From an uncultured Gammaproteobacteria bacterium (lineage in GTDB: Bacteria > Patescibacteriota > Microgenomatia > CAYXHB01): 64,000 nucleotides of DNA. How positions within the stretch are numbered: the first letter of the stretch is position 1; every line of letters begins with the position of its first letter. Shown here one piece after another: positions 7,369-48,550 of this stretch. The notes beneath the pieces are model-generated. The model was not told the origin of the DNA and made no database searches. It worked only from the letters and a program-made list of their open reading frames with translations. The stretch lies in NCBI GenBank assembly GCA_964561945.1, contig CAZLQM010000001.1, positions 25,655 through 89,654 of the forward strand, read 5' to 3'. The position numbers were made by a program, and so were the translations under genes.

Positions 7369-7395
7369 TATGCTTGTGACATACTTATATTAATG

Positions 7396-9537: not shown

Positions 9538-11979
9538 TTAGGATATTACCAATGGTTTGACTTGAATCTTTTTGGTAGGGTGAGGCTGAAAATTTATTAA
9601 GGCAAGAGGCAAGACCTCGTCAAGGTGAGATACGGGGACTATGTCTAGATCTTTCTTGACTTTTAGAGGAATTTCTTCAAGATCCTTGATATTATCTTTG
9701 GGAATTAAAACTCGTTTGATGCCCGCTTTGTGGGCTGCGATTAATTTTTCTTTGAGTCCGCCAATTTCTGTAACCCGACCTCGCAAGGTAATTTCGCCTG
9801 TCATGGCAACTTCTTTGTGGGTTGGCGTATTAGTGAAGGCTGAAGTTAGAGCTGTAGCAATGGCAGCACCCGCAGATGGTCCGTCTTTGGGGACAGCTCC
9901 TTCGGGTACGTGGATATGAACATTGATTTTGCTGGCATCTTTGGAATCAATTCCCCAATCCGGCGATCTCATTCTAATATATGTAAATGCAGCTTTGGCT
10001 GACTCCTGCATAACTTGACCAAGTTGACCTGTCAACAAAAGAGTGCCCTTGCCATTGGGTACAATTCCAACTTCAATGAAAAGGATATCTCCACCAACGG
10101 GCGTATAGGCAAGTCCCGTAGCGATACCGATGCCGTCTTCTGTATCGGCAAGCTGTGAAGAAAACTTAGGCGGTCCAAGGTATTTGCCAAGATCAGATTG
10201 TTTGATTTTGATGGTTGAAGTCTTGGGTTTTTCGGAATACATGCGAGCGATTTTGCGCGATATTTGTGCTATATTCCGCTCGAGCTCCCTAACTCCTGCC
10301 TCGCGAGTATAGCGATTAATAATTTGATGGAGGGCGGAGTCCTCGAGTTTGATTTTCACATCATCTAACCCGTGACGCTCAATTTGTTTGTTAACTAGAT
10401 ATTTTTTGGCAATTTGAAATTTTTCGTCTTCAGTGTAAGAAGAGAATTTGATAATTTCTAAGCGATCACGCAAGGCAGGTGGAATTGTATCAAGCATATT
10501 GGCTGTTGCAATAAACATAACTTGAGAGAGATCAAAAGGAACTTCTAAATAATGATCTGAGAATTCATGGTTTTGTTCTGGGTCAAGGGCTTCGAGCAAT
10601 GCAGCTGAAGGATCGCCACGCATGTCCATGCCCATTTTATCGATTTCATCGAGCATGAAAACAGGATTTTTGGTGCCTGCGGTTTTGATACCTTGAATAA
10701 TTCTACCCGGCAAAGCTCCGACATATGTACGGCGATGACCTCTAATTTCAGCTTCATCACGAACTCCACCTAATGAAACCCGAATAAATTCACGACCTAA
10801 GCTCTTGGCAATTGATTTTCCGATTGAAGTTTTGCCAACTCCTGGAGGACCAACGAAACAAAGAATAGCAGGGATAAAGTTTTCTTTTTTGGATTTGTCC
10901 TTGGACTTTTGTGCGTTTTTACGCATATTCATAACTGCCAAAAACTCAATGATGCGCTCTTTGATTTTGGCTAGTCCGTAGTGATCTTTTTCGAGAATTT
11001 CGATGGCATCTTTGAGAGATTTGTCATCATTAGTTGCTTTGGACCAAGGCATGTCGGTTAACCATTCGAGATAATTGCGGATATAGCCTGACTCCGGATT
11101 ATTAACTGACATATTTGATAAGCGTTTGAGTTCTTTGTCTGCCCTTATTTTGACTTCTTTGGGCATTTGGGCTTTTTTGATTTTCTTCTTGAGCTCAGCG
11201 ATTTCGGGATCTTGATCATCAGCATCAATACCTAGTGTATTTAGCTCGGCATCAATGGTTTTTCTGCGTTCTCTAAGAACTGCTTCACGCATGGATTTGT
11301 TGATACGTTTCTGGGTTTTGGTGGCTATTGATTGCTCAAGCTCGAGAACTTTGACCTCGCGTGTCAAGTGAGCAATGATCAGATTAAGACGTTCTTGGAT
11401 AGATGAAGTCTCGAGAATCTGTTGTTTATCAGGAATGCTGATTTCTAGTGATGAAGCAATTTGATCACAAAGTTCGGTTTCACTGACGCCTGCCATTAGT
11501 CTCATAAAAATACTAAGATCTACACCTTTGCCAAGATTGACAGCTTGTTTGAATAAATTAGTAAGATGCTTGGAAAGAGCGGTAATTTCATCGCCGTGAT
11601 TATCGCTATCTTCAATGGGAGTTATCTGAGCCATCCAAAACTGTCCCTCTGTGTTAACACGGCTAATTGACACACGTTGGATGCCTTTGACTAGAGCATG
11701 GATGACGCCCTCGATGGTGAGGATTTTGTCAATTTGAATTTGGACACCAATACTATAGAGGTCATCTGGTGTGGGATCTGTGACAGCTGAGTCTTTTTGA
11801 GTTACGAGACAGATGGTTTTGCCGAATTGTTCAGCTGCGTTGACGGCTGCGACTGATTTGGATCTGCCAAAGGTAAGCACAGGTTCAGTATGTGGAAAGA
11901 TTACAACGTCCCGAACAGGAACTAAAGGAACTTCTTTGGAAGTAGAAGGGTTGGTTACATCAGGTAACAAAGTAGTCAT
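9538..11979 (-). CDS. lon: ATP-dependent Lon protease (full length: LAN, AAA+ and S16 peptidase domains)
   Basis: 'GPPGVGKTSIGKSIA', 'RGHRRTYVGALPGR' and catalytic 'PKDGPSAGAAIATAL' in an 813-aa ORF. Confidence 0.95.
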   Translation of the reverse strand: MTTLLPDVTNPSTSKEVPLVPVRDVVIFPHTEPVLTFGRSKSVAAVNAAEQFGKTICLVTQKDSAVTDPTPDDLYSIGVQIQIDKILTIEGVIHALVKGIQRVSISRVNTEGQFWMAQITPIEDSDNHGDEITALSKHLTNLFKQAVNLGKGVDLSIFMRLMAGVSETELCDQIASSLEISIPDKQQILETSSIQERLNLIIAHLTREVKVLELEQSIATKTQKRINKSMREAVLRERRKTIDAELNTLGIDADDQDPEIAELKKKIKKAQMPKEVKIRADKELKRLSNMSVNNPESGYIRNYLEWLTDMPWSKATNDDKSLKDAIEILEKDHYGLAKIKERIIEFLAVMNMRKNAQKSKDKSKKENFIPAILCFVGPPGVGKTSIGKSIAKSLGREFIRVSLGGVRDEAEIRGHRRTYVGALPGRIIQGIKTAGTKNPVFMLDEIDKMGMDMRGDPSAALLEALDPEQNHEFSDHYLEVPFDLSQVMFIATANMLDTIPPALRDRLEIIKFSSYTEDEKFQIAKKYLVNKQIERHGLDDVKIKLEDSALHQIINRYTREAGVRELERNIAQISRKIARMYSEKPKTSTIKIKQSDLGKYLGPPKFSSQLADTEDGIGIATGLAYTPVGGDILFIEVGIVPNGKGTLLLTGQLGQVMQESAKAAFTYIRMRSPDWGIDSKDASKINVHIHVPEGAVPKDGPSAGAAIATALTSAFTNTPTHKEVAMTGEITLRGRVTEIGGLKEKLIAAHKAGIKRVLIPKDNIKDLEEIPLKVKKDLDIVPVSHLDEVLPLALINFQPHPTKKIQVKPLVIS

Positions 11980-33460: not shown

Positions 33461-35617
33461 TTAGGATGGATTTTCTTGGAGGAATCTTTGCGCCGCTAGG
33501 ATATTTATTTCGCGTTTCTTGGCATTTTTTTGAGGTGCGCCAACAATTCCTAACGTTTCCATTTCTTTTATAAGTCTAGCTGCTTTGTTGAAACCAATCC
33601 TGTGTTCAGTTTGAAGCATGGAAGCTGAAGCTCCGCCTGTGCTCAAGACTGTTTCAATGGCAAGTCTAAGTTCCGGACTAAACTGAGATTCTGCTTCGGA
33701 TTGAAGTTTGGTTTCTGCAACTGATTGGGCTGCAATATCAATGTACTGAGGATTTAGTCCTTGGGATTTAATAAAAGTTGTGACTCTTTGGATTTCTTCG
33801 GTGGTTATAAATGAGCCTTGAATTCGAATGGGTTTGCGGTCAGATGATACGAATAACATGTCTCCTTGACCAAGCAATTTTTCGGCTCCTGGCATATCAA
33901 TAATTGTTCGAGAATCTTGCATTTGGGGGAGAGCAAAGGCGATTCGCACGGGAATATTGGCTTTGATTAAACCAGTAATGACGTTTACATCTGGTCTTTG
34001 AGTAGCTAAAACAAGATGGATACCTGGGGCTCGAGCCATTTGGGCTAACTTAACAATTGATTCTTCTGTCTCACGAGGTGCACTCATCATGATGTCATTA
34101 AGTTCATCGATAACAACTACGATCGAAGGGAGAGCTTGATAGCCCATGATTCTGTTGTAATCTGCTAAATTTTTGGCTCCTACTTCCATGAATCGACTAA
34201 GACGCTCATCCATTTCTTTGCAACACCAACGCAGTGCCGGTAATACATCTTTGACTTCGGTAATTACAGGCGATAATAAATGGGGGATACCTGAGTAGCC
34301 AGTTAGCTCAACTTTTTTGGCATCAGCTAATACCAGTCTAACTTCGGCAGGATTTGCTCGGAATAAGATTGAGCAAATAATACTATGCACACAGATTGAT
34401 TTACCACTGCCCGTTGTACCTGCGATTAATAAATGTGGCATGCGGGCAATATCAAATCCCTGTGGCTTGCCACTGATATCTTTACCTAAGGCAACTAGCG
34501 TACGGGACGACTCAGCTTTGACTGGAGTTGATTCAAGAACTGAACGCAGAGTTACAGTTTCGATTTTTTGGTTTGGAACTTCAATCCCAACATAATTAGT
34601 CCCCGGTATAGGCGCTTCGATACGAATTTGGCCAGTTGGTGCAGCTAAGGCAAGGGCCAGATCAGCAGCTAAATTGGTAATCCGGTTGAGCTTGGTGCCA
34701 TCTGGAATTGAGATTGAGTATTGAGTCACCGATGGACCAACCTTGGTATCGGCAACTTTGGCACGACGGATTCCAAAAGCGTCAAGAGTGCGCTCGATGA
34801 TGGAAGCATTTTGGCGGGTGTGACTATTGCTCGTGCTACTGGTAGTGCCTGCGATTAGTAGGGAAGTTGGAGGCAACACCCAAGGAGTATTGATTGCCAT
34901 TTGAGTTAAATGTGTTGCGCTGGTTACTGACGAAGATATTTCATCAATGGCAGGACTGGGTAGATTGTGAGGCAAGTTATTGGTGATAGAAGTTGAACCC
35001 TGATTTGGCAAAACCGGACGGAGTGGCAATTGGGTTGGTGCTATATTATCTAAATTCGAATCTGTTTCAGAAATAAGCTCTGGTTGAGGTGTGAGTTTGG
35101 GAATTATTTTCTCGATTATTTCTCTAAAATAAGCAAATGTATAAAGAAGGAAACCTTTGAGTCTTAATGGTGGAATGTTAAAGATAACAATAATTGCAAT
35201 AAAAAACGAAAATACAAGGACAGAATATGCACCAAATGAAGTAATATAAGGCGAAAGACTAGAAAAAATTGATTGACCAAAAAGACCTGTGTGGAAAAGT
35301 CCTGATAAAGAAATAACCATAAGCCAGGTACCCAAGACAACATACTGGCGAACAAAAACTAGTTGACGTAGATTAAGAACTTGTAAACTTATTTGTAAAA
35401 GTAAAAAAGGAAGAGCTATTGCCATCCAACCAAAATATTTAATTACCCATTGATTGATTTTGCCTGGAACTCCAGTCGATTGAGAAAAGGAAAGAGCGAT
35501 CAAAGCAGCTAGTACCAGAATGGCAATTCCCAAAATGAACTTTAGCAATCTAGAGCTGATGTTGATTTTGATAGCTCTCTTGATGACTTTTTTTTTGTAA
35601 TGGCGTTTTTTGGGCAT
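33461..35617 (-). CDS. ftsK: DNA translocase FtsK/SpoIIIE
   Basis: N-terminal TM helices, Pro/Ser-rich linker, motor 'HLLIAGTTGSGKSICVHSIICSIL' and a C-terminal gamma domain. Confidence 0.9.
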   Translation of the reverse strand: MPKKRHYKKKVIKRAIKINISSRLLKFILGIAILVLAALIALSFSQSTGVPGKINQWVIKYFGWMAIALPFLLLQISLQVLNLRQLVFVRQYVVLGTWLMVISLSGLFHTGLFGQSIFSSLSPYITSFGAYSVLVFSFFIAIIVIFNIPPLRLKGFLLYTFAYFREIIEKIIPKLTPQPELISETDSNLDNIAPTQLPLRPVLPNQGSTSITNNLPHNLPSPAIDEISSSVTSATHLTQMAINTPWVLPPTSLLIAGTTSSTSNSHTRQNASIIERTLDAFGIRRAKVADTKVGPSVTQYSISIPDGTKLNRITNLAADLALALAAPTGQIRIEAPIPGTNYVGIEVPNQKIETVTLRSVLESTPVKAESSRTLVALGKDISGKPQGFDIARMPHLLIAGTTGSGKSICVHSIICSILFRANPAEVRLVLADAKKVELTGYSGIPHLLSPVITEVKDVLPALRWCCKEMDERLSRFMEVGAKNLADYNRIMGYQALPSIVVVIDELNDIMMSAPRETEESIVKLAQMARAPGIHLVLATQRPDVNVITGLIKANIPVRIAFALPQMQDSRTIIDMPGAEKLLGQGDMLFVSSDRKPIRIQGSFITTEEIQRVTTFIKSQGLNPQYIDIAAQSVAETKLQSEAESQFSPELRLAIETVLSTGGASASMLQTEHRIGFNKAARLIKEMETLGIVGAPQKNAKKREINILAAQRFLQENPS

Positions 35618-35670
35618 GGCAATGAAGATTAATAGCTATCATTGTATCACAATGTCAGGTTCAAAATTGT

Positions 35671-37323
35671 TTAAACTTCAATTACGACAGGTAAAATCAT
35701 GGGGTGGCGTTGAAGTTTGTCAGCAAAGTGATTGGCGAGAATATCAATGGTTTCTTGTTTAACATGGTGCCAGTCACTCATTGTCTTTTGGCGATTAAGG
35801 ATCGAATTGAGATGATGTTTGGCGGATAACAAAATTTCACTGTTAGGTTTAGCGTATATCAAACCTCTGGTGATAATATCAGGAGCTTCAGCAAGGCGTT
35901 TGGTTTCTGAGTCAATTTGGATTAGGACAACCACAATACCTTCCTCTGCCAAAACTTGTCTATCCCTCAATACAACATTGCCAACATCTCCGACCCCAAG
36001 GCCATCCACCATAACATTGCGGATTAGCGCATTGTCCCCAAGACGAACTCCTTGTTGATCGACGATGACAGTGCGACCTTCGGGCAATAGAACATTTTTG
36101 CGATCATAGCCCATAGATTCAGCTAAAAGTGAGTAATGAACCATGTGTCGAAAAGTTCCACCCACAGGCATGAAGTATTGAGGATTTGTTAAGTTTATAA
36201 GCATCATGAGATCATGACGACTGCCGTGGCCTGAAACATGTAAGTCGTCTTTGATATTGGCATAGGTAACCGTAGCACCACGTTCATAGAGGGCATCAAT
36301 GGCTGCGTGAATGGCGGTTTCTGAGCCTGGAATATAGTCTGAGGAAAATAGAACATGATCGCCTGGTTTGATATTAATGAAAGAGTGATCGCCAATGGCA
36401 AGACGTTGTAAGGCAGAGCCTGTTTGTCCTTGGCTTCCTGCAGTTAAAATGGTGACCTGATCATCCTTGTATTTACGCAGATTCTTGAGGGGAACAATCT
36501 GGCGGATATCCACATCTAGATATCCAAGTTTTTGGGCGATGGTAACGTTTTTCTCAATTGAACGACCTGCTATGAAAATCTTGCGCCCGTGTTTGATTGA
36601 AGCTGAGATAGCTTGCTGAAGACGTGATATGGAAGACGACATGGTGGTGACAATGAACTTACCTTTACAACTTGAGATCTCACGCTCAAACATTTCATCT
36701 AAACTTTTCTCGCTACGAGTAGCACCTTGGCGTTCGCTACCAAGAGAATCGGAAATTAGCAATTTGACTCCTAGATTACCCGCTTGGGCGATTTTGCCGA
36801 GCTCCGGTTGTTTACCATCAACTGGAGTGAAATCGAATTTGAAGTCAGCCCCATGATAGATAATGCCAGCACTGGTCTTGATGATGAGATGGAAGGTATC
36901 GGGAATTGAATGTGAAACACGAGCAAAACTAATCTCGAAGCCTCCAATTTTGATGGAAGCATCAGATGAGACTATTTGGATATTACGCTTAATGTTATAT
37001 TCTTGGAGTTTTGCTTGAGCTAGTGCTGCGGTGAGTCTGGCGGTATAAATTGGGAACTCAGGAAGTTGAGGTAAAATATAAGGTAATCCACCAATATGAT
37101 CTTCATGGCCATGGGTCAAAATCATGCCACGAATTTTTTCGCGTTTATTTTTGAGAAAACCCACATCTGGAATTAGGAGATCGACTCCAAGCATTTCTTC
37201 AGTAGGGAAACCGATGCCACAGTCGATGAGAAGAATATCAGTATCGGTTTCGTAAGCATACATATTACGAGTAACTTCACCAAAGCCTCCAAGGGAAGTG
37301 ATGTGTACGGTATTAGGATTCAT
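35671..37323 (-). CDS. rnj: ribonuclease J
   Basis: Metallo-beta-lactamase 'THGHEDHIGGLPY' plus beta-CASP and C-terminal domains in a 550-aa ORF. Confidence 0.9.
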   Translation of the reverse strand: MNPNTVHITSLGGFGEVTRNMYAYETDTDILLIDCGIGFPTEEMLGVDLLIPDVGFLKNKREKIRGMILTHGHEDHIGGLPYILPQLPEFPIYTARLTAALAQAKLQEYNIKRNIQIVSSDASIKIGGFEISFARVSHSIPDTFHLIIKTSAGIIYHGADFKFDFTPVDGKQPELGKIAQAGNLGVKLLISDSLGSERQGATRSEKSLDEMFEREISSCKGKFIVTTMSSSISRLQQAISASIKHGRKIFIAGRSIEKNVTIAQKLGYLDVDIRQIVPLKNLRKYKDDQVTILTAGSQGQTGSALQRLAIGDHSFINIKPGDHVLFSSDYIPGSETAIHAAIDALYERGATVTYANIKDDLHVSGHGSRHDLMMLINLTNPQYFMPVGGTFRHMVHYSLLAESMGYDRKNVLLPEGRTVIVDQQGVRLGDNALIRNVMVDGLGVGDVGNVVLRDRQVLAEEGIVVVLIQIDSETKRLAEAPDIITRGLIYAKPNSEILLSAKHHLNSILNRQKTMSDWHHVKQETIDILANHFADKLQRHPMILPVVIEV

Positions 37324-37337
37324 AAGTTTTTTATATT

Positions 37338-38423
37338 TTACCAGGTCGGCAGATAAGGTTTGATGTTTTCGGTAGTTAAGTCCAACGCTGTGATTTGACC
37401 TTCGACAATCTGTCGGGCAACCTTGCGACCGATTCCATTGATGGTTCTTTCTAAGGTACGAATACCCGAGTCAAAACCCAAAGGCCTAACGATGAGAGGC
37501 CAAGTGTCGTCGCTAATGGTAAGCTGATCTATATTGAGGCCTGAGTCTTGGATGACTTTGGGCAAAACGTATTCTCTACCGATATGAATTTTTTCATCAT
37601 CAGTATAAGATGGCATTCTGATTAATTCCATACGATCAAGAACCGCCGTTGCGATGTTATTGGTATTATTGGCTGTAGCTATAAATAGAGCTTGGGAAAG
37701 ATCAAAAGGATAATCGATGTAGTGATCGGTAAAAGCATTGTTCTGACCTGGATCTAACAATTCAACCAAAACTCCCATAATATCTCCTCTAACTTGTTCT
37801 GAAACACGATCAATTTCATCAAGGAGAATAACTGGATTTTTGACCTCAACTCGACGAAGTGACTTAAGAACTTGACCCACTTCGGCATCGGGTTGAATTC
37901 GCGATTGACCACGAAGAATTGAGGCATCACCCATACCTCCGAAAGGGATACGGACAAAAGGTCTTCCCATGGCTTCGGCTATTGATTTGGCGATAGTAGT
38001 TTTTCCAGTACCTACGAGCCCGACGAAGAATAGAATGGGGGCTCGCATTAATTGAGCCGTGACTTCTTCTTCAGACAGGTCTTGTGATTTGAGCTGAGTG
38101 GCCTTGAGTTGCATGACTGCGATTGATTCTAGAACGCGAGCTTTTATCTCCTCTAGTCCATAATGAGTCTTATCGAGAACTTGTTTAGCATAATTTAGAT
38201 CAAGGATATCTTGACTGCGCTTATACCAAGGCAAACTGCTAATCCATTCGACGTATTTAGAAACAGATTCGTATTCTTGAGAGTAAAATCCTGAGCTGAC
38301 AGCCCGATGGAGTCTACGTAACATGCTATTAACTCTATCCTCGAGAAGGGGTGGTAACTTAGTGTTATCAACTTGAGACTGTAAATTATTTAATTCCTCA
38401 ATTATATCTGGCTGCTCATTCAT
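37338..38423 (-). CDS. standalone Lon-derived AAA+ ATPase (helical linker plus AAA+ module only, no LAN or S16 peptidase domain)
   Basis: Aligns throughout with residues ~280-620 of the Lon encoded at 9538-11979: 'KTHYGLEEIKARVLESIAVMQL', Walker A 'GLVGTGKTTIAKSIA', 'ILLDEIDRV', 'DHYIDYPFDLSQALFIATAN'. It ends where the peptidase domain would begin. Confidence 0.8.
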   Translation of the reverse strand: MNEQPDIIEELNNLQSQVDNTKLPPLLEDRVNSMLRRLHRAVSSGFYSQEYESVSKYVEWISSLPWYKRSQDILDLNYAKQVLDKTHYGLEEIKARVLESIAVMQLKATQLKSQDLSEEEVTAQLMRAPILFFVGLVGTGKTTIAKSIAEAMGRPFVRIPFGGMGDASILRGQSRIQPDAEVGQVLKSLRRVEVKNPVILLDEIDRVSEQVRGDIMGVLVELLDPGQNNAFTDHYIDYPFDLSQALFIATANNTNNIATAVLDRMELIRMPSYTDDEKIHIGREYVLPKVIQDSGLNIDQLTISDDTWPLIVRPLGFDSGIRTLERTINGIGRKVARQIVEGQITALDLTTENIKPYLPTW

Positions 38424-38483
38424 ATATTATCCTAAAATTTACTATATCACGGGAAGCGTAAAAACACAGAATTTGGTTGAAAA

Positions 38484-40643
38484 TTAGCGATTGAAACGGC
38501 GTGGTCCACCACCTTGACGAGGCCTGTTGTCTCTACGAGGACCGTTGTCGGAGCGACGTGGAGCTCGCGGCTCGCTGTCTCCTGGGTTGGAATCCAATAA
38601 CATAGTTAAGTTTAATCTGCCCATATCATCAATTTCCATGACTTTAACGGTTACTTTGTCACCTTCGGAAACTAAGTCTTGGGGATCATTAACATATTCT
38701 CGTGACATTTGAGATACATGCACAAGGCCTTCGCGCCCTGGGAAAATTTCTACGAAAGCTCCAAAATTAACCAGTCTGGTAACTGTGCCTTCATATAACT
38801 GTCCCGGCTCTGGTTCCGTAGTAAGATTTTTGACCCAATCAACTGCTTTATCGAGGCTTTCTTGACTGGTAGCACTAATCATAACCGTGCCATCATCTTC
38901 AACGTCAACTGTAGCTGAGGTTTCGGCAATAATACGACGGATCATGCGACCACCTGGACCAATAACTTCGCCGATCTTCTCAACTGGGATTTTGACTTGT
39001 TGAACCTTAGGAGCAAAAACAGAAACTTGTACGCGGGGTTGAGATATTGCCTGATTCATTTTGTCTAAGATGAAAAGCCTATCTTGGCGAGCTCGCTTGA
39101 TAATCTCGGACACTAAAGGAAGTGATAGACCTGTAATTTTGACGTCTAGTTGAACTGCAGTAATGCCTGTGACTGTACCTGCAACTTTGAAATCCATGTC
39201 GCCATTGAAGTCTTCGATGCCTGCAATGTCGCTTAGAACAAGTGGTCCTTCAGGTGCGTCGGAGATCAAACCCATAGCAACTCCTGCAACTGGCGCTTTG
39301 ATAGGAACTCCAGCATCCATTAAAGCGAGGGTTGAACCCGAAACTGAAGCTTGGGAAGTTGATCCATTGGATGAAAGAATATCAGAAACAACTCTTATGG
39401 TGTAAGGAAATTCGGAGAGTGAAGGGATGACTGGCAAAAGAGCCTTTTCAGCCAAAGCTCCGTGACCGACTTCACGCCTGCCTGGACCGAACATGCGACT
39501 AGCTTCTCCAACTGAGAATGGAGGGAAATTATAGTGATGGATATAATGTTTTTCAAGTTCTTCGGTAGTAGTTTCGATGAGGAGCCCAAAAGCTGGAGTT
39601 GCTAGAGTGGCTACAGTTAATGCTTGCGTGGTACCGCGTGAAAATAGAGCGCTACCATGGACACGGGGCAAAACTCCAACCTCTGCTGAGATTGTGCGAA
39701 TCTCGTCTATCTTGCGACTGTCAGTGCGCTTGCCTGAGGCAATAATGGCTCGAATGGCTTTTTTCCATTGATAATTAAAGGCTTTCTCAAGCAATTTGCC
39801 ATCGGCATCTATATTGGTTTCTTTGAAAGTTTGGAATGGCACGTCAAATTCTATAGTCGAACCGTCTTTTTGGGCTGTAGATATATAGTCAGCAATGACT
39901 TTTTGGGCTTGAGTTTTGAGATCTGAAGGGATTTCTGGAGCGGAAACCACGATCTTGGTAGTTTGCACTTTGGACATTAATTCTTCGATGAGCTCAATAA
40001 CGAGTTTGTTTTGGGTGTGAGCGAATTCCATCGCTTGAACAAATTGATCATCAGGAAGTTGGTTGGCGCCTGCCTCGATCATGTTGATGACATCTTTGTT
40101 ACCTGCAACGAATAATTCTAGTGATGATTTGGCAATCTGTGCAGGTGAAGGATTGGCGATCAGTTCTCCGTCTACCATGCCGACCTTAACTCCACCTAAG
40201 GGACCGGCCCAAGGGGCGGGTGAAATGGCTAGTGCCGCTGAGGCTCCGATAAAACTTGCAATATCCAATTCGGCTTCTCCGTCATATGCCAACTCGGTCA
40301 TGATGACTTGAACTTCTCGATTGAAATTTTTGTCAAACAAAGGACGAATAGCTCGATCAACTAAGCGACCGGTAAGCACGGCATCATCTGAAGGACGACC
40401 CTCACGCTTGACCCAGCGAGAACCTTTGATTTTGCCACTAGCATAAAGGCGCTCAATGTATTCAACAGATAAAGGAAAATATCCAAGACTAGGATTATCT
40501 CTACCGACTACGACAGTAACGAGAACGACACTTTCTCCGTATTGAACCCAAACAGCACTATCTGCTTGACTGGCTACTTTGCCGATTTCTAGTTTGAGTG
40601 TTTTGCCCGCAATTTCTCTGCTAACACTTACAATTTGTGACAT
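38484..40643 (-). CDS. pnp: polynucleotide phosphorylase with an Arg/Gly-rich basic C-terminal tail
   Basis: Two RNase PH domains, KH and S1 in a 719-aa ORF. The tail reads 'DSEPRAPRRSDNGPRRDNRPRQGGGPRRFNR'. Confidence 0.95.
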   Translation of the reverse strand: MSQIVSVSREIAGKTLKLEIGKVASQADSAVWVQYGESVVLVTVVVGRDNPSLGYFPLSVEYIERLYASGKIKGSRWVKREGRPSDDAVLTGRLVDRAIRPLFDKNFNREVQVIMTELAYDGEAELDIASFIGASAALAISPAPWAGPLGGVKVGMVDGELIANPSPAQIAKSSLELFVAGNKDVINMIEAGANQLPDDQFVQAMEFAHTQNKLVIELIEELMSKVQTTKIVVSAPEIPSDLKTQAQKVIADYISTAQKDGSTIEFDVPFQTFKETNIDADGKLLEKAFNYQWKKAIRAIIASGKRTDSRKIDEIRTISAEVGVLPRVHGSALFSRGTTQALTVATLATPAFGLLIETTTEELEKHYIHHYNFPPFSVGEASRMFGPGRREVGHGALAEKALLPVIPSLSEFPYTIRVVSDILSSNGSTSQASVSGSTLALMDAGVPIKAPVAGVAMGLISDAPEGPLVLSDIAGIEDFNGDMDFKVAGTVTGITAVQLDVKITGLSLPLVSEIIKRARQDRLFILDKMNQAISQPRVQVSVFAPKVQQVKIPVEKIGEVIGPGGRMIRRIIAETSATVDVEDDGTVMISATSQESLDKAVDWVKNLTTEPEPGQLYEGTVTRLVNFGAFVEIFPGREGLVHVSQMSREYVNDPQDLVSEGDKVTVKVMEIDDMGRLNLTMLLDSNPGDSEPRAPRRSDNGPRRDNRPRQGGGPRRFNR

Positions 40644-40746
40644 ATTTTAATTCTTTAAATTTATTTTATTTTGACTAAAGCAGTATAACATAAAAATGAA
40701 TACGCTTTGGAAAGCAAAACTATCAACCTAACACTGGGTATTTTAA

Positions 40747-41016
40747 TTATTTGGAGAGTCCAAGTTTGCCAATTATTGTTTGATAGCGATCTAGATTTTT
40801 GGTCATGAGGTAGTGTAACAAACGGCGTCTTTTGGAAACCATTGAAAGCAAGCCTTTACGCGAATGAACATCTTTCTTATGTTCTCGGAGATGCTCGGCG
40901 AGTTTGTCAATTTTAGCACTAAGAAGTGCAACTTGAACTTCTGGGCTACCAGTGTCGCCAGACCCGGTGGAGTATTCGGTAATTATTTTTTGTTTTTGGT
41001 CAACTAGAAGTGACAT
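40747..41016 (-). CDS. rpsO: 30S ribosomal protein S15
   Basis: 89 aa with '[26 protein letters not shown]'. Confidence 0.95.
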
Positions 41017-41027
41017 ATTATTATTAG

Positions 41028-41924
41028 TTATTGAACTTCACGTATTGTATCAGGTACGGGCTTGGTTGGCAAATTGGCCATGTGATCGATGTTGCCTTTA
41101 ATCCACTTAGGGATAGGCTTGTTGGTTTTTGGGGTTTGCTGATTATTAGGTCGAGAAGGAATTGTGGCATTTGAGGTTGTTGTGAGTGGGGTAAAACTGC
41201 GATAATTACGAGTGCCTCCTGCATTGAGACACTCGGCTGTCATGGTAAAAACTTCCGAAGGGAGATCGGGATTGGCAAATCTTTCAGTTCGGTTTTCTAA
41301 GCCCGTAAGTAACAAGGTAGCGATAGTTGGTTCTAGTTTGATTTGAAGGGACTTGAATAACTGCCAAATAACGAAGGTAAGTGACGGTGCGGAAGGATTG
41401 GGATATTCTTGAATACGGGGATCTGGTTGAAGTTTTTCGGAGGTAGAGAATCTAGTGGTAATTAATTTGTTTTGGGTTAGTTGTTTGAGTTCAGAATTAT
41501 TGATAGCCTCGCGGGAAGCACCAATTAAAATAACTAAGTCGGCATCTACGCCTGTATAACTAAATTCCATTTGGGAGATGTCTAAAGGTTGAGAGTTGGT
41601 TTTGGTTTGAATGATGATGGCAAATCTGCCCTTATCACGTTGAGCTTCGGTCATGACTTGAGACACAGAATCTTGCGCGTCTGGCCAAGAGATAATGATG
41701 TTTTTGCCCTTAATTTCTGATTGAATCATCGATTGAGCTGGTAATTGCCACTCTTGATGGGCATGGCCAAGAATCGAGATCTGTTTGCCCTTGGCTTTGA
41801 AACCGAGAGCCAAGGCAAGAGCTGTGCAAGCCTGATCAAGCAAGGCATTGGCTGGAAGTACGATAACTATGCTATTTGATTGGGTAATCTTGGTTAGTAG
41901 TGATTCTTGAGAAAGACTGTCCAT
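41028..41924 (-). CDS. NrnA/DHH-DHHA1-like protein with degenerate catalytic motifs (probable pseudo-enzyme) and a Pro/Thr/Asn-rich C-terminal tail
   Basis: It is collinear with NrnA but every catalytic motif is substituted: DxD becomes 'PANALLDQA', the DHH triad becomes 'ILIGASR', GDTGxF becomes '[13 protein letters not shown]', and GGGH becomes 'NAGGTRNY'. Confidence 0.5.
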
Positions 41925-41977
41925 CTTTGTAGTTTTTGGATTATATGATAGATGTAAGTGAGAAAGAATATATGATT

Positions 41978-43414
41978 CTAGCTAGATTTGGCAGGAAGTT
42001 TCTTAGGTTTGAATGCAATTAAGTTATCACCTACTCGGAAATCAATATAGGGCGAAAACACACAGCCAAATTCTTGATTGAGAGCAACTTTGGAAACTGG
42101 GTTTTTGGCTTGTTTGAGACTGGAAATACGGCTAGTGCCGACGTTAGTTTGATTGCGAATCAAATCAACTTGGATATCATCTAAAATTTCACCTTCGGTT
42201 ACTTTGCAACCTGCGATGCGATGTTTGTCTATTTTGAATTCGGCGTTGATGTCTGCTTTGCCGATTATGTCACGATCATAATAAGGATCTATAGTGCGAT
42301 TGTATAGTTCGTCAATGTATTCATATAATTCATAGATAATATTAAATGACTTGACGGTTACTTTTTCGGCCTCTGCCACTCGGATAACCTGATTAGGAAC
42401 TAAGACGGAAAATGCGACGATGAAAGCACCAGCACTCTTGGCCAAGGAAATATCCCCTGGGGTCACGTCGCCCACTGTGGACGAGAAAATGGTTACTCCT
42501 TGAGGAATAATTGTTTGGATAGCTTCAAGTGAGCCTTGTGCATCTGCCTTGATGATACAAGTGAGTACCGGCTTTATAGGTTCATTTCTGCTTTGGTTGG
42601 GAGATGTTTCTTGAGATGAAGTCGAGGAAAGAACCGCACCAACTTGAGGTATGGAATCCCAACCCATAATTTGAACTGGAGTACTGGGAAGAGCTTCTTT
42701 GAGACTTTTGCCAAGATGATCGGTTAGTGATTTGACTTTGGCTTGAGCTTGGTGAGCGTAGATTGTGTCCCTGACCTTGAGAGTACCCTCGGTTATTACT
42801 GCTGTGGCGATAATCCCTCGATGGGGATCTTTTTGGGATTCGATAATGACTCCCGAAATATCAGACTTAGGGTCAGCCTTTAGATCAGTAAGCTGAGCGA
42901 CTAAAAGTAGAGTTTCAAGTAATGTATCTATGCCTTTGCCTGAAACACTAGAAACTTCGACGACAGGAATGTCCCCGCCAAATCCTTCAACTAAACACCC
43001 TTGTTCGGCTAGTTCTTGTTTGGCTCTGGTGGGATTGGCAGTGGCGATATCACTTTTGGTTAGGGCCACAATATAAGGAACTTGAGCCTGCTTGATATGA
43101 TCTAAGGATTCTTTGGTTTGAGGCTTGACCCCTTCTGTGGCGGCAACAACTAAGATTACGATATCAGCCACTTTGCCCCCGCGAGAACGCATTTGCGAAA
43201 AGGCAGCATGACCTGGTGTGTCAATAAAGGTAATTTTGTGAGATTGGTGTTGGGGATCTTTAACTTCAACTTGGTAAGCTCCGATATGCTGAGTAATTCC
43301 CCCGTGTTCTTTTTGGGCAACTTTAGTTTTGCGGATATAATCCAATAACGAAGTTTTGCCATGATCTACATGGCCCATAATTGTAACGATTGGGGGTCTT
43401 GAGATAGCTGTCAT
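41978..43414 (-). CDS. infB: translation initiation factor IF-2, short form starting at the G domain
   Basis: 'IVTIMGHVDHGKTSLLD' lies at residue 8. Only 478 aa. Confidence 0.9.
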   Translation of the reverse strand: MTAISRPPIVTIMGHVDHGKTSLLDYIRKTKVAQKEHGGITQHIGAYQVEVKDPQHQSHKITFIDTPGHAAFSQMRSRGGKVADIVILVVAATEGVKPQTKESLDHIKQAQVPYIVALTKSDIATANPTRAKQELAEQGCLVEGFGGDIPVVEVSSVSGKGIDTLLETLLLVAQLTDLKADPKSDISGVIIESQKDPHRGIIATAVITEGTLKVRDTIYAHQAQAKVKSLTDHLGKSLKEALPSTPVQIMGWDSIPQVGAVLSSTSSQETSPNQSRNEPIKPVLTCIIKADAQGSLEAIQTIIPQGVTIFSSTVGDVTPGDISLAKSAGAFIVAFSVLVPNQVIRVAEAEKVTVKSFNIIYELYEYIDELYNRTIDPYYDRDIIGKADINAEFKIDKHRIAGCKVTEGEILDDIQVDLIRNQTNVGTSRISSLKQAKNPVSKVALNQEFGCVFSPYIDFRVGDNLIAFKPKKLPAKSS

Positions 43415-43472
43415 GTTTTTTATAAATTTGGGAAATAACGCTTAAAATTGAAATGGAGTGCGGGATAGAGAT

Positions 43473-44555
43473 TTAATCTAGCTCTTTTGGATCGGCTTGG
43501 GACGGTTCTTGGTCATCATCTGCTTCAACAGTGGCAGATTCTGCACTCCGTGAGGATTCTGGTTTGATACCAGAGGCTCCTACGACATCAAGTTTATACC
43601 CTGTAAGTTTTGCAGCCAAGCGTACGTTTTGACCGTCTTTGCCAATGGCCAGAGAGAGTTGGTCATCAGGAACGGTAACTAGGGCAGTAAGTTCTTCGTC
43701 ATTAACGAGAACAGATTGGACAGTGGCTGGTGACATGGCCGCAGCGATAAAACGAGATGCATCGGCGTTGTATTCGATGATGTCGATTTTTTCGCCCTTG
43801 AGTTCGTTGATTACAGCTTGGACTCGGACGCCTTTTTGACCGACGCACGAGCCAACAGGATCAACTCCTTGTTGAGATGAGAAGACTGCCATCTTGGTGC
43901 GAGCTCCAGCCTCACGAGCAATGGACTTGACCTCAACGTTGCCAGAGTTAACCTCGGGGACTTCACGTTTGAAAAGTTGTACTACCAAATTCTTGTGAGC
44001 ACGAGAGAGAATTATTTCTTCTCCACGGATGGTTTCTTTGATTGATTCAATATAAAAAACCAAGCGTTGATTAAGCTCATAATCTTCGCTGATGACTTGT
44101 TCGTATTGAGGCATGAAGCCTTCGGCCTTGCCTAAATCAACGATGATATTATGACCGTCAATTCTCATGATCATCCCGTTGACTATTGATCCTACACGCT
44201 CCTTGTAAGCTGCGATGATAACTGATTTTTCAGCTTCCCGCATTTTTTGGATAATTACTTGCTTGGCAGTTTGTGCTGCGATGCGACCAAATCCAGGAGG
44301 GGTAACGTCTTTCATTTTGCCTGGGTTATCTGGATCTGCGGTTGTCATCATGATCCCACCGTTTACTGGATCTACGTCAACTTTGTATTCAATGGATTCG
44401 TCGATTTCTTCACCGCGTTCCTTGGCATCTTTTTGGAATGCAGCCACGATGGAAGACTCGATAGCACCAAGAACCATCTCGGGATCAATGCCCCTGTCGT
44501 TAGCCAATTGGTTAACGGCGGCGGCGAATTCTGTACGTGCGATTACTTTGGCCAT
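43473..44555 (-). CDS. nusA: transcription termination/antitermination factor NusA with an acidic C-terminal tail
   Basis: 'MAKVIARTEFAAAVNQLANDRGIDPEMV...' with S1 and KH domains. I used the ATG at 44555; the ORF-track extension to 44663 relies on a TTG start and crosses the terminator hairpin. Confidence 0.9.
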   Translation of the reverse strand: MAKVIARTEFAAAVNQLANDRGIDPEMVLGAIESSIVAAFQKDAKERGEEIDESIEYKVDVDPVNGGIMMTTADPDNPGKMKDVTPPGFGRIAAQTAKQVIIQKMREAEKSVIIAAYKERVGSIVNGMIMRIDGHNIIVDLGKAEGFMPQYEQVISEDYELNQRLVFYIESIKETIRGEEIILSRAHKNLVVQLFKREVPEVNSGNVEVKSIAREAGARTKMAVFSSQQGVDPVGSCVGQKGVRVQAVINELKGEKIDIIEYNADASRFIAAAMSPATVQSVLVNDEELTALVTVPDDQLSLAIGKDGQNVRLAAKLTGYKLDVVGASGIKPESSRSAESATVEADDDQEPSQADPKELD

Positions 44556-44575
44556 ATTATTTTTGTTACAGCAAT

Positions 44576-44600
44576 AAAAAAGGTGGGAAAACGCCCACCC
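44576..44600 (-). terminator. intrinsic terminator/attenuator hairpin in the nusA 5' leader
   Basis: Minus-strand RNA reads GGGUGGG-CGUUUU-CCCACC followed by UUUUUUAUU. The U-tract ends about 20 nt upstream of the nusA ATG. Confidence 0.55.
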
Positions 44601-45177
44601 TAATGCTCTTAGCGTGTAGTTTACCACTAGGATGGATTTGGAGTCAAATAATGTACAAATCAAATTGTAAAAATGTTGGAGGTATGTGAAGTAGAACCAT
44701 TGGTAGCAAAACCGTCGGCTGTGTGGGAATAACTACTTCCGCGAGTGCGATACAGACTGCCAGACATGGCTACACAAAATAACTAGGCGTTTCACGATTA
44801 GATCCCTTCTCAAGATAAGTGGGTAGATGTGAACTCGCGATAGAATAACAAAAAACAGTATTCAATAGGCACTCTCCTTATGAATAGATATGAAGTGAAC
44901 TACACTTCCTGATTAGAATTCTTGGGCGGGTTAAGAAGAGGTTTGACAACAATTGATTCAAAATCTAAGTTTAAAATTTGTGCATATTCGCAAGTAATAA
45001 CCTCAAATTCTTCGATATATCTTTTATTGTCTACAAAATTTATGGTTCACTAATATCTTCTTCCATATTTTAGAAATAAATAATCAAATTAATAACAAGA
45101 TATCTTGTACAGATTATTTATTAAATTTTGTGTGGAAATATAATGAGCAAGACACCTGACGTAAACAGAGGGGAGGT

Positions 45178-46050
45178 CTAAGTAGCTTTATCAAACTGTT
45201 CGATGAGTTGGCGTTGTTTTTTTGAAATATTATCGGGAATATCAACAAGAATACGTACATATTGGTTGCCCCGACCTGATCGATTAAGAAATGGCACTCC
45301 TTGGCCTTGGAGTCTGATCATGCTATGAGATTGAGTACCAGCGCGGATTTTGATTTTGAGTTCGCCGTCCACGGTAGGAACTTTAGTAGTTGTCCCTAAA
45401 ATAGCGTCTGAAATACTAATATGATGATCAATATATATATCTTGACCCTCGCGTTTGAATGTGGGATGAGAACCAACGTCGATAGTGACATCAAAGTCCG
45501 TGAATCTTAATCTGGTTCCATCTGATGCACCTTTAGGAATTTTGATGGTGTGTTCTTTGCCTTGGATAACAACCTTCTTCTCTCCTCCATTGACTGCATC
45601 CATGAAATCTACCTTAAGAGAATAGTGATCACGTGGCGCGGATTGGCGACCAAATGGTGAACCGCCACCGAAAAATTGCTCAAAGATCTCGAATGGATCT
45701 GTAAACTCTACATCACCAAAGGGGGAACCCCCTGAGAAGTTGGTTGAGTAGGAATAACTAAAAGGTCCAGTCTGAGCTCCGCGTTGATTGCCAAATCCAC
45801 CTGGAGGAAAACCCCCTGACCCTGGCGAAAAGGCTGCATGACCAAATTGATCATAAGTTTGGCGCTTCTGCGTGTCGGAGAGAACTTCGTAGGCGTGATT
45901 GATTTCTTTGAACTTGGCTTCTGCTTCGGGAGTCTTATTACGATCAGGATGCCACTCAAGGGCTTTCTTGCGATAAGCTTTTTTTATTTCTTCTGCTGTG
46001 GCTGTTTTGGTGACACCCAAGAGATCATAGTAATCTGATTTTGGAGGCAT
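45178..46050 (-). CDS. dnaJ: DnaJ-class co-chaperone, type II (J domain, G/F region and C-terminal domains, no CxxCxGxG zinc finger)
   Basis: '[33 protein letters not shown]' in a 290-aa ORF. Confidence 0.85.
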
Positions 46051-46088
46051 ACCTATAAATATTAAAAACCTAAGTTGGCTAGAGAAAA

Positions 46089-48002
46089 TTAATCGCTGAC
46101 TACTTCGCCTTCTTCAGCTTGATCTTTGGAATCTGAAGTTGTGTCTGTTTTTTTGGTTTCGTCGGTAGATTTATCATCTGAGGTCTCGGGTGCGGATGCT
46201 GACGCTGCCGATTGCATAGCTGGACCGATTTTTTGCATGGCATCGGAGAGTTCTTTGGACTTGGTATCTATCTCTTCTTTAGAACCTGATTCCAAAATAC
46301 CTTTGAGACTAGATACTTTGTCTTGGACTTCTTTGATAAGTTCTTGAGGAATCTTATCTTTGGCGTCTTCGAGAGCTTTCTCGGCAGTGAAAATCATGGC
46401 TTCAGCCTGATTACGGGCTTCGATTTGGGCCTTCTTTTGCTCATCCTCCGCCTTGTATTTCTCGGCTTCGTCTTGAGCTTTTTTGACTTCTTCGTCACTA
46501 AGTCCAACCGCCCCTGTTATTGTAATGTGTTGTTCTTTGCCGCTGGTCTTATCTTTGGCGGAAACCTTGAGAATGCCGTTTGAATCAATGTCAAAGGTAA
46601 CTTCGATTTGAGGGACCCCACGAGGCGCAGGAGCAATGCCATCAAGTTTGAAGGTCCCCAAACTCTTATTATCTTGAGCCATAGGCCGCTCGCCTTGAAG
46701 GACGTGTACTTCTACGGAGGTTTGATTATCGGCAGCAGTTGAGAAAACTTCAGTCTTGGCTGTAGGAATAGTGGTATTGCGAGCAATCATGGGAGTGGCA
46801 ACTCCGCCGAGAGTCTCGATACTCATGGACAAAGGCGTGACGTCCAAGAGAAGAATATCAGTCACATCTCCTGCTAGCACACCTCCTTGAATCGCAGCAC
46901 CCACAGCCACAACTTCGTCTGGATTGACGCCTTTGTGAGGTTCTTTGTTAAAGAATTCTTTGACCACTTGTTGGACTTTGGGCATTCGAGTCATACCTCC
47001 AACTAGGATTACTTCATTGATGTCAGAAACTTTGAGATCGGCATCTTTGAGTGCAGCCTCAACTGGTTTCATGGTGTTGGCAATGAGATCTCCGATTAAT
47101 GATTCTAATTTGGCGCGAGTTAATTTGAGATTAAGATGCAAGGGGTTGCCTTCTTTGCTCTGGGTAATGTAGGGTTGGGAAATTTCGGTTTCTTGAGAAC
47201 TGGAAAGTTCGATCTTAGCTTTTTCGGCGGCATCACGAATTCTTTGAAGAGCTTGTTTGTCTGCTTTGAGATCGACACCGTTTTCTTTTTTGAATTCAGC
47301 AACTATCCAGTCAATAATGACTTCGTCAAAATCATCTCCGCCAAGATGTGTATCCCCGTTGGTTGATTTAACTTCGAATACACCATCGCCAATTTCGAGG
47401 ATGGAAATATCGAAAGTTCCGCCACCGAGATCATAGACAGCAATCTTTTGGTTGTTTTTCTTATCCAGACCGTAGGCTAAGGCCGCGGCTGTGGGTTCAT
47501 TGATAATCCTGTCTACTTTGAGTCCTGCAATTTCACCGGCCTGCTTGGTAGCTTGGCGCTGAGCATCGTCAAAATAAGCAGGAACGGTAATGACAGCTTG
47601 GCCAACTTTTTCACCTAGGAATTCTTCAGCGTGTTTTTTCATGGTAGAAAGAATGCGAGCTGAGATTTCTTGAGGAGTATAAACCTTACCATCGACCTCG
47701 ACTGCGGCCATGTCTTCTTTGCCTTCAACTATTTTGTAGGCAACAGTTTTTTTCATCTTCTCGACTTCTTTGTCTTGGTAACGTCTACCCATCAATCTTT
47801 TAACAGAGTAAAGAGTGTTGGCGGGATTGAGAATCATTTGGCGTTTGGCAACATCGCCGACTAAATTCTTAACTGGCTCGACAACAGAAGGAGTAGTGTT
47901 TTTGCCGGTGTCATGCGCAGGAATAACCTTGGGCTGACCGCCCTGCATAACTGCAACACAGCTGTTTGTGGTTCCGAGATCTATACCGATTATTTTTGAC
48001 AT
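46089..48002 (-). CDS. dnaK: molecular chaperone DnaK (Hsp70)
   Basis: '[14 protein letters not shown]', '[12 protein letters not shown]', 637 aa. Confidence 0.97.
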
Positions 48003-48012
48003 ATTTTTTAGA

Positions 48013-48039
48013 TTAGCACCAATTTAACACGAGTGCTAA
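48013..48039. promoter_or_regulatory. CIRCE-like HrcA operator upstream of dnaK
   Basis: TTAGCACCA-ATTTAACAC-GAGTGCTAA against the consensus TTAGCACTC-N9-GAGTGCTAA. The right arm overlaps the grpE stop codon. Confidence 0.6.
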
Positions 48040-48539: not shown

Positions 48540-48550
48540 AAAAATTTTAT

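Follow-up and report, generated by a model that had tools for sequence, protein, structure and literature searches.

A Lon-derived AAA+ ATPase without a protease domain, usually encoded beside the PNPase and RNase J genes in Microgenomates and related bacteria

Introduction

The 64,000-nt stretch of contig CAZLQM010000001.1 analysed here (hereafter, the window) carries an open reading frame (ORF) for a 361-aa AAA+ ATPase of the Lon type, which lies between the genes for polynucleotide phosphorylase (PNPase; pnp) and RNase J (rnj). Every Lon chain has been defined as an ATPase domain followed by a protease domain, and the recognised types are LonA, LonB, LonC (whose ATPase is dead) and LonBA; S16 homologues without ATPase components were noted in the same source, whereas the reverse was not (PMC9569914). 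The question raised by this locus is what a Lon-type ATPase with no protease of its own does beside two ribonuclease genes. A sequence-only reading of the window had suggested that the ATPase was recruited to an RNA-degradosome-like function rather than to proteolysis.

As judged from sequence comparison, the gene is an intact member of an ancient, unnamed family of LonA paralogs present in Microgenomates, Dojkabacteria and deeper relatives within the candidate phyla radiation (CPR/Patescibacteria). We regard this molecular identity of the 361-aa protein as almost certain, and it is likely that the short ATPase is not a protease motor. A functional link to PNPase and RNase J, the basis of which is gene position, is possible and is proposed here tentatively.

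Results

The 361-aa protein corresponds to the linker and ATPase module of LonA

A Pfam scan of the 361-aa protein detected AAA (residues 132-268, E = 4.9e-18) and Lon_lid (residues 293-343, E = 9.5e-10), giving the module signature PF00004 plus PF22667; neither LON_substr_bdg (PF02190) nor Lon_C nor an RNA-binding domain was found in the scan. When the protein was compared by BLASTP with the 813-aa Lon encoded in the same window, its residues 10-346 were aligned with Lon residues 259-588 (130/337 identities, 39%; E = 1e-79). The four motif pairs that the sequence-only reading had put forward as a likeness to the linker and AAA+ module of Lon occur verbatim in the two translations, on the minus strand, which had not been stated there. 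The alignment ends at Lon residue 588, and the end of the ORF coincides with the linker between the AAA and protease domains, as had been claimed. The coiled-coil part of the HI(CC) region is absent from the protein, the alignment beginning only at Lon residue 259. The NCBIfam model TIGR00763 (lon) covers the protein only over model positions 252-568 of 795, with a score of 329.7 bits that is below the cut-off of 608.05, while the 813-aa LonA exceeds this cut-off with 898.9 bits. The score against NF008053 was 246.5, likewise below its cut-off (891).

The nearest solved structures are LonA proteases (E about 1e-70), including MtaLonA. The E. coli Lon fragment 235-584 (PDB 6N2I) was matched end to end, query residues 3-358 being aligned with residues 3-339 of the 344 in the chain (E = 3e-69). 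In an AlphaFold2 (AF2) monomer model of the protein (pLDDT 77.5), three helices at the N-terminus precede an ATPase core of the Rossmann type and a lid made of helices; the top fold matches of the model are LONP1 and bacterial LonA (Foldseek probability 1.00). A three-helix bundle preceding the AAA+ module has been described (PMC8244335, PMC6722904). In the short protein, the N-terminal region has helices at residues 5-19, 25-43 and 48-63 of the AF2 model and carries a conserved Y-x-x-W-x-x-x-L-P-W motif, of which P65 and W66 are present at 95% or more in the short family and LonA alike.

A tblastn search of the window with the Lon N-domain (residues 1-250) and the Lon protease domain (residues 590-813) matched only the 813-aa Lon itself. 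Together with the Pfam domains, this agrees with the earlier statement that the protein has neither a LAN domain nor an S16 peptidase. A YifB/ComM-type AAA+ protein of the Mg-chelatase family is encoded at 7336-8922 on the plus strand; only a few hundred bases separate it from full-length lon, and it is unlinked to the short ATPase gene; its N-terminal ChlI domain has a Lon-protease-like fold and was the only other Lon_C-related fold noticed in the window. Membership of an anti-phage defence system was considered and rejected, since the models of such systems (BrxL-type, PADLOC) gave only weak generic AAA matches (best DolB, 32.8 bits) and the genomic context consists of housekeeping genes.

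The gene belongs to a large family of intact short ATPases

Relatives of the ATPase gene were found in at least 530 species-level genomes in a genome scan that used one genome per species. The best 80 loci, which were fetched, belong to Microgenomates-type CPR: Gottesman-, Shapiro-, Woese-, Curtiss-, Chisholm-, Blackburn-, Beckwith-, Ames- and Cerribacteria. The gene had been treated in the sequence-only reading as a peculiarity of one operon, and this has to be corrected in favour of a large and ancient family. The 120 best database matches, from Candidatus Gottesmanbacteria, Shapirobacteria and Microgenomates, are 350-388 aa long, cover the full query with 59-100% identity and contain Lon_C in no case. 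They are labelled 'AAA family ATPase' or, wrongly, 'ATP-dependent Lon protease'; for the short proteins, annotations of the latter kind, or as 'Lon protease', are wrong about the activity. Neither Pfam nor NCBIfam holds a model dedicated to the family, and no publication on it was found in the literature searched (protease-less Lon, Lon-like ATPase in Patescibacteria, and AAA+ proteins in RNase J/PNPase degradosomes).

The record titles of many of the related metagenome-assembled genomes read 'uncultured Gammaproteobacteria/Pseudomonadales bacterium', and one reads 'Bathyarchaeia archaeon' (L001, L002, L005, L010 and others, where L numbers denote loci). The contigs with such titles show CPR gene order and CPR-type proteins, and the titles look like placeholder or wrong taxonomy. 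Among them is L001, the locus most closely related to the window (86% identity).

The ORF is 342-479 aa long (median 354) in 79 of the 80 fetched loci. When the flanks of 82 loci were searched by tblastn with the Lon N-domain (1-250) and protease domain (590-813), there was no match, and no S16-like sequence was found within 7 kb in any of them. At the same loci, the short ATPase had a median identity to the window copy of 58%. Ribosomal protein S15 was slightly higher (61%), whereas PNPase (49%), RNase J (44%), IF2 (43%) and FtsK (41%) were lower, so most of these essential neighbours are less constrained than the short ATPase.

These data bear on a rival explanation, by which the ORF would be a Lon duplicate in decay or would owe its length to an assembly error or frameshift that conceals a protease domain. 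In favour of it can be said that the ORF is a truncated version of a full-length gene type and nothing more. Against it stand the occurrence in at least 530 species-level genomes with uniform length and invariant catalytic motifs, a conservation above that of PNPase or IF2, the monophyly and age of the family (see below), and the start of rnj 14 nt past the stop codon with no Lon_C similarity in any frame. We consider this explanation refuted, with practically no probability left to it. The refuting outcomes named in advance, i.e. an S16 domain hidden by a frameshift or a sporadic, decaying copy, did not materialise, as 79 of 80 ORFs are uniform and no protease remnant occurs in the 82 loci. 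An apparent run-on of the tblastn similarity to Lon (residues 601-639) into the first ~35 codons of rnj at L002, L004, L036, L050 and L055 was judged to be chance similarity because the Lon protease domain alone gives no match there at E <= 1e-3. The run-on reflects the N-terminus of RNase J (DILLIDCG) against Lon (DILFIEVG); it crosses a stop codon and could be mistaken for a protease remnant.

The short ATPases form one clade apart from LonA

A profile search was run over 1.8 billion cluster representatives and was followed by re-scoring of each module. The short family scored 360-550 bits per module, ordinary LonA 300-345 bits and Lon proteins with tandem AAA modules 160-270 bits. Long proteins that had topped the representatives search as apparently very close relatives were rejected, as they are tandem-AAA Lon proteins with scores inflated by summing. 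The more distant short members come mainly from Dojkabacteria (WS6) and often have low-complexity N- or C-terminal tails.

In a neighbour-joining (NJ) tree of 98 modules (338 columns, simple distance correction, 100 bootstraps; LonA sampled as the best-scoring representatives), all short proteins from Microgenomates, Dojkabacteria and deeper lineages formed one clade in 99 of the 100 bootstraps. This clade is apart from the 36 LonA representatives, among them the LonA of the window, and from the tandem-AAA Lon proteins. The duplication is therefore older than the split between Microgenomates and Dojkabacteria, and the short ATPase did not arise by recent copying of the resident lon gene.

The tandem-AAA Lon proteins, which were encountered outside the window (representatives P0121, P0123, P0125, P0126, P0127, P0129, P0133 and P0139), have two or three complete Lon-type AAA+ modules in tandem, each with its own lid, and one S16 domain. 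They are about 960-1675 aa long, retain the pore-loop Tyr or Phe and form their own NJ clade; P0121 is assigned to Candidatus Dependentiae. We know of no description of the stacked-ring Lon architecture that such proteins would form.

ATPase motifs are preserved while pore-loop aromatics are lost

The elements of an active AAA+ ATPase are kept in common with LonA at 95% or more: Walker A and B, the sensor-1 Asn (ATANN), the DHY..P.DLS motif of the pre-sensor-1 hairpin region, the Arg finger and sensor-2 (G[IV]R.L.R). The LPW motif of the helical bundle is kept to the same degree. The ATPase elements include D202, E203 and D205 at Walker B, and [LM]DR[LMI]E at the Arg finger is found in 75 of 79 loci. 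The ATPase motifs are invariant or nearly so among 27 and 79 family members. Ahead of sensor-2, the Y-T-R-E of LonA is replaced by L-G-F-D in the window protein, with family-specific switches at residues 315, 316 and 318.

The pore loops behave differently. In the 36 LonA representatives, G-H-R-R-T-Y of pore-loop 1 is invariant (entropy 0), whereas no column of the pore-loop region varies more among the short proteins than that of the Tyr (entropy 3.13 bits; H, F, Q, E, Y, N and others). At this site the window protein reads G-Q-S-R-I-Q-P-D, and the divergence of RGHRRTY to RGQSRIQ that the sequence-only reading had pointed out is seen in the alignment with the window Lon. The second Arg of GHRR, invariant in LonA, is Ser in 88% of the short members, and an acidic P-[DE]-A-E-[PV]-G stands where LonA has [VI]-G-A-[ML]-P-G. 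At pore-loop 2, the aromatic residue of LonA (F/Y/W) is changed to A/G/E/T/S, and RGDP is changed to R-[AS]-D-[IV]-M. In AAA+ unfoldases, aromatic pore residues grip and pull the polypeptide. Since the ATP site is preserved while these pore positions are unconstrained, the short ATPase is unlikely to be a processive protein translocase.

One explanation that would still place the protein in proteolysis is a split Lon, in which the ATPase would be partnered by a peptidase from another gene, on the model of ClpX and ClpP or of HslU and HslV. The end of the ORF at the AAA/protease linker would suit such an arrangement, and the C-terminus, [FY]-L-P-[TS]-[WY], is conserved in Microgenomates and is conceivable as a docking tail. 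On the other hand, the C-terminal aromatic is not conserved in Dojkabacteria, the pore aromatics that deliver substrate are lost, the flanks of the 82 loci hold no S16-like sequence and no peptidase recurs among the called neighbours of the short ATPase loci. A split Lon is thus very improbable.

A further explanation, which is the strongest form of the earlier idea, is that the Lon-derived ring is an RNA translocase or helicase that threads RNA to PNPase or RNase J in place of a DEAD-box helicase. Ring helicases use His and Arg residue types for phosphate contacts, and the former Tyr is most often His or Arg in the Microgenomates (H 46, R 15, Y 10, F 4, Q 3 and V 1 in 79 loci). The gene sits between two exoribonuclease genes, and no DEAD-box protein was seen among the large ORFs scanned, a sample that takes in just a portion of this single 64-kb window. 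In the known degradosomes with RNase J and PNPase, an RNA helicase that depends on ATP is present (PMC3592473, PMC5289998). Nevertheless, His and Arg are frequent at the former Tyr position only in Microgenomates; across the family the position is highly variable, with E, N, Q, S and D also present, and is followed by the acidic D/E-A-E. The replacement of the invariant LonA Arg by Ser and an isoelectric point (pI) of the module of 5.9, lower than in LonA, point in the same direction. Since an acidic pore should repel RNA, threading of RNA becomes less likely, and we regard this explanation as quite improbable.

The gene is recurrently linked to pnp and rnj

In the window, pnp ends at 38484 and the ATPase ORF starts at 38423, and the stop codon of the latter (37338-37340) is followed by the rnj start codon at 37323, so the spacings of 60 and 14 nt given earlier are exact. 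The assignment of the neighbours as PNPase and RNase J also agrees with their Pfam domains. Linkage across relatives was counted among loci with enough flanking DNA. Of 70 such loci in Microgenomates, 60 have pnp upstream in the same orientation, and 50 of 59 have rnj downstream, again in the same orientation. A median of 72 nt separates the pnp stop from the ATPase start, and the two are no more than 150 nt apart in 37 of 61 loci.

The linkage extends beyond close relatives. The order nusA-(ylxR)-infB-x-rpsO-pnp-AAA-(nudix)-udg-rnj is found in three of seven Dojkabacteria-type loci (L084, L168 and L170); the other four (L081, L083, L085 and L169) have neither pnp nor rnj nearby. The gene of the deep-branching member P0153 is located 4.4 kb downstream of rpsO-pnp and upstream of ftsK, and rnj lies 78 nt downstream of the gene of the deepest member, P0174; the loci of linkage in deep members are L166 (pnp) and L171 (rnj). 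As a control, pnp, rnj and rpsO were within reach in none of 76 full-length lonA loci from metagenomes, 23 of which had full 7-kb flanks. These control loci came from a metagenome scan aimed at Dojkabacteria-type loci, which yielded ordinary LonA for the most part, as the peptide patterns used occur in both. No association other than that with pnp and rnj recurs among deep lineages, and this one is confined to the short family.

A gene for uracil-DNA glycosylase (udg, family 4-like) stands directly after the ATPase gene in L014, L020, L023, L025, L026 and others as well as in L082, L084, L168 and L170; none is present in the window. Since udg is placed between the ATPase gene and rnj in Microgenomates and several Dojkabacteria loci, the ancestral order was likely pnp-AAA-udg-rnj, with udg lost from this position in the window.

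The gene context also bears on the explanation that the short ATPase serves protein quality control and is unrelated to RNA. It would then be a Lon-type chaperone or holdase devoid of a protease, or else would modulate the resident LonA, for instance by forming mixed rings with it or capping it, its degenerate pore loops tuning or poisoning translocation. Genes for dnaK, dnaJ, grpE and hrcA belong to the same co-directional array, and one family member is divergently placed beside groES. Both Lon-type proteins are encoded in the genome of the window. Mixed rings are conceivable because the inter-subunit elements, Arg finger and sensor-2, and the three-helix bundle are conserved with LonA, and the tandem-AAA Lon proteins show that Lon-type modules can stack in one polypeptide. 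These points are countered by the recurring neighbours, which are pnp and rnj and not chaperone or protease genes, and by the loss of the pore aromatics, which argues against a classical unfoldase. As for a LonA modulator, the two paralogs are only 39% identical and deeply separated in the tree, and the short ATPase gene is adjacent to lonA in none of 82 loci. A role in protein quality control is therefore considered rather unlikely.

Organisation of the window around the ATPase gene

The features of the gene and its surroundings are listed in Table 1.

Table 1. Coordinates of the short ATPase gene, its motifs and its neighbours in the window
Feature	Position	Strand	Basis or remark
Lon-type AAA+ ATPase gene without protease, stop codon included	37338..38423	minus	ORF list, ATG start, 361 aa
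N-terminal helical region, about aa 1-86 (last three helices of LonA HI(CC) plus linker)	38166..38423	minus	aligned to Lon 259-335
Walker A GLVGTGKTT, aa 135-143	37995..38021	minus	invariant in alignment A1; GLVGTGKT in 78/79 loci
Pore-loop 1 region RGQSRIQPDAEVG, aa 171-183; Gln in place of LonA Tyr, then P-[DE]-A-E-[PV]-G hallmark	37875..37913	minus	
Walker B VILLDEID, aa 198-205; pore-loop 2 comes next, at about aa 206-217, and has no aromatic	37809..37832	minus	
Arginine finger R264 (LDRME)	37632..37634	minus	D263, R264 and E266 at >=95% in short family and LonA
Sensor-2 arginine R322 (GIRTLER)	37458..37460	minus	G320, R322 and L324 at >=95% in both families
pnp, PNPase of 719 aa, directly upstream, co-directional	38484..40643	minus	Pfam RNase_PH x2, RNase_PH_C, KH_1, S1
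pnp-AAA spacer, 60 nt, without terminator-like hairpin	38424..38483	minus	sequence
AAA-rnj spacer, 14 nt, without terminator-like site	37324..37337	minus	sequence
rnj, RNase J of 550 aa, directly downstream, co-directional	35671..37323	minus	Pfam Lactamase_B, RNase_J_b_CASP, RMMBL, RNase_J_C
Full-length LonA of same genome, 813 aa; comparator and possible partner, outside the operon	9538..11979	minus	Pfam LON_substr_bdg, AAA, Lon_lid, Lon_C

On the minus strand, the gene order is rpsO (40747-41016), pnp, the ATPase gene, rnj and ftsK (33461-35617). These genes are part of an unbroken co-directional array at 33461-49285 that consists of hrcA, a grpE-sized ORF, dnaK, dnaJ, nusA, infB, a 298-aa ORF, rpsO, pnp, the ATPase gene, rnj, ftsK and an HTH_25/RodZ-like gene. 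IF2 encoded in this array is short (478 aa) and begins straight with the GTPase domain. A scan for promoters and terminators gave no more sites than in shuffled sequence and none in either spacer of the ATPase gene.

The 298-aa ORF (41028-41924, minus strand) between infB and rpsO has no Pfam match and occupies the place where rbfA and truB stand in many bacteria. Its position is kept in at least 34 related loci with an identity of only about 25%, and in Dojkabacteria a 420-442 aa protein, also without Pfam matches, is encoded at the equivalent site.

The window PNPase ends, after its S1 domain, in an Arg/Gly-rich low-complexity tail of about 37 aa (38487-38597, minus strand). Tails of 25-120 aa are found on PNPase in nearly all Microgenomates loci (L001-L080), a subset of which has a common GGPHFP[TA]SR motif. 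Binding of this tail by the acidic pore loop of the ATPase was considered and rejected: four loci in which PNPase has no tail keep the identical loop, so the tail and the loop do not covary.

Elsewhere in the window, ORFs at 22116-25163 (minus strand), 57827-59653 (plus strand) and 16662-17606 (plus strand), for proteins of 1015, 608 and 314 aa, had no Pfam match at E <= 1e-5. The region of these ORFs is rich in genes for glycosyltransferases, PMT_2 and polysaccharide synthesis.

Discussion

Because the protease domain, the N-domain and the pore grip have been lost and the PNPase and RNase J genes usually adjoin, the short ATPase probably has a function other than proteolysis. The explanation that we favour overall, although only tentatively, is that this Lon-type ATPase without a protease is an ATP-driven remodelling or assembly factor whose likeliest clients are in the RNA-decay machinery of PNPase and RNase J, with which it would be co-transcribed. 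The protein is predicted to assemble into a ring and to consume ATP. Ring formation is expected because the equivalent E. coli fragment, EcLon(235-584), which has neither the N-domain nor the protease (P) domain, crystallises as an open hexameric ring; it also binds ADP (PMC6722904). Such a ring would neither translocate polypeptides processively nor feed a protease, and it is unlikely to thread RNA itself; it may instead control the assembly, release or protein occupancy of the RNA-decay machinery or of its ribonucleoprotein (RNP) substrates. In a more specific form, which we consider unlikely, the Lon-derived AAA+ ring would be the ATP-consuming subunit of a PNPase/RNase J decay complex in Microgenomates, Dojkabacteria and relatives, a degradosome motor not of the DEAD-box type that acts via its acidic pore on the proteins of RNPs or directly on PNPase and RNase J, e.g. 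by clearing bound proteins or gating PNPase.

Several observations weigh against a role of the ATPase in RNA decay. The evidence for that link is the position of the gene, and among several hundred matches no fusion to an RNase domain was found. The position itself is not constant: a tight junction with rnj is the minority state (200 nt or less in 14 of the 50 loci with rnj downstream), at 23 of 79 loci rnj is parted from the ATPase gene by udg, and pnp and rnj are both missing at 6 of 15 additional family loci, one of them beside yidC-jag-rplY and one, that of a Microgenomates-related member in divergent orientation, beside groES. Moreover, the whole co-directional array hrcA-grpE-dnaK-dnaJ-nusA-infB-x-rpsO-pnp-AAA-rnj-ftsK-RodZ-like is kept as a block in relatives, the order of the window from dnaK to the RodZ-like gene being repeated in L082. 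Part of the linkage with pnp and rnj is therefore attributable to plain inheritance, and the block is of mixed functions. With a median pI of 5.9, compared with 6.5 in LonA, the ATPase module is acidic, as is its conserved pore loop, and neither property lends electrostatic support to RNA binding. As for the loss of the pore grip, Tyr or Phe still occupies the pore-loop-1 position in 14 of 79 Microgenomates proteins. Finally, the P domain adds to ring stability in LonA, and the hexamer and the ATPase activity of the short protein are predictions. Of the earlier suggestion of a degradosome-like function rather than proteolysis, the second half gains support from the loss of both pore-loop aromatics, while recruitment to a degradosome continues to have gene position as its argument.

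Branches of Lon that keep the protease and lose the ATPase are known, while a large, ancient and constrained branch of the opposite kind has had no name. The short family can be seen as a natural experiment on a Lon motor that does not thread into a protease. Across a major part of the CPR, where most conserved unknowns are uncharacterised, it ranks with the better-conserved proteins, and its recurrent placement with pnp and rnj yields a concrete, testable hypothesis for the organisation of RNA decay in reduced genomes.

Comparison with known systems

The closest known relatives of the short ATPase are the LonA proteases (E. coli Lon, Meiothermus taiwanensis LonA and human LONP1; MEROPS S16), with which it has a homologous three-helix bundle, alpha/beta ATPase domain and lid. 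LonA additionally has a LAN N-domain, a coiled coil and the S16 protease, all three of which are absent from the short family, and the GHRRTY pore-loop 1 and aromatic pore-loop 2 of LonA are both lost. EcLon(235-584) (PDB 6N2I), obtained by limited proteolysis, has nearly identical boundaries; it is, however, a laboratory fragment of a protease with LonA pore loops, whereas the short ATPase is the natural product of an independently evolving gene. LonC, the Lon-like proteases of thermophiles, and the short family have each given up one of the two activities (PMC9569914). LonC retains the protease and has lost the ATPase residues, and the short family is its mirror image, with the ATPase kept and the protease lost.

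ClpX, ClpA and HslU are likewise free-standing AAA+ proteins of the same broad group with no protease domain in the chain. Their pore loops are still aromatic, and each has a dedicated peptidase as its docking partner, whereas the short family has lost the aromatics and has no linked peptidase. The embedding of the ATPase gene with pnp and rnj recalls the DEAD-box helicases RhlB, CshA and RhpA, which are found in degradosomes with RNase E/Y/J and PNPase; an ATPase is indeed part of RNase J-based and Gram-positive degradosomes (PMC3592473, PMC5289998). This likeness is one of position, as DEAD-box proteins have a RecA-like fold whereas the short family forms an AAA+ ring, by prediction, with an acidic pore. 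Taken together, the short protein differs from LonA in the protease domain, the N-domain, the pore loop and a TIGR00763 score under the cut-off, and it agrees with LonA in having a Lon-type AAA+ module with the motifs of an active ATPase; it is therefore filed as the representative of a Lon-derived stand-alone ATPase family.

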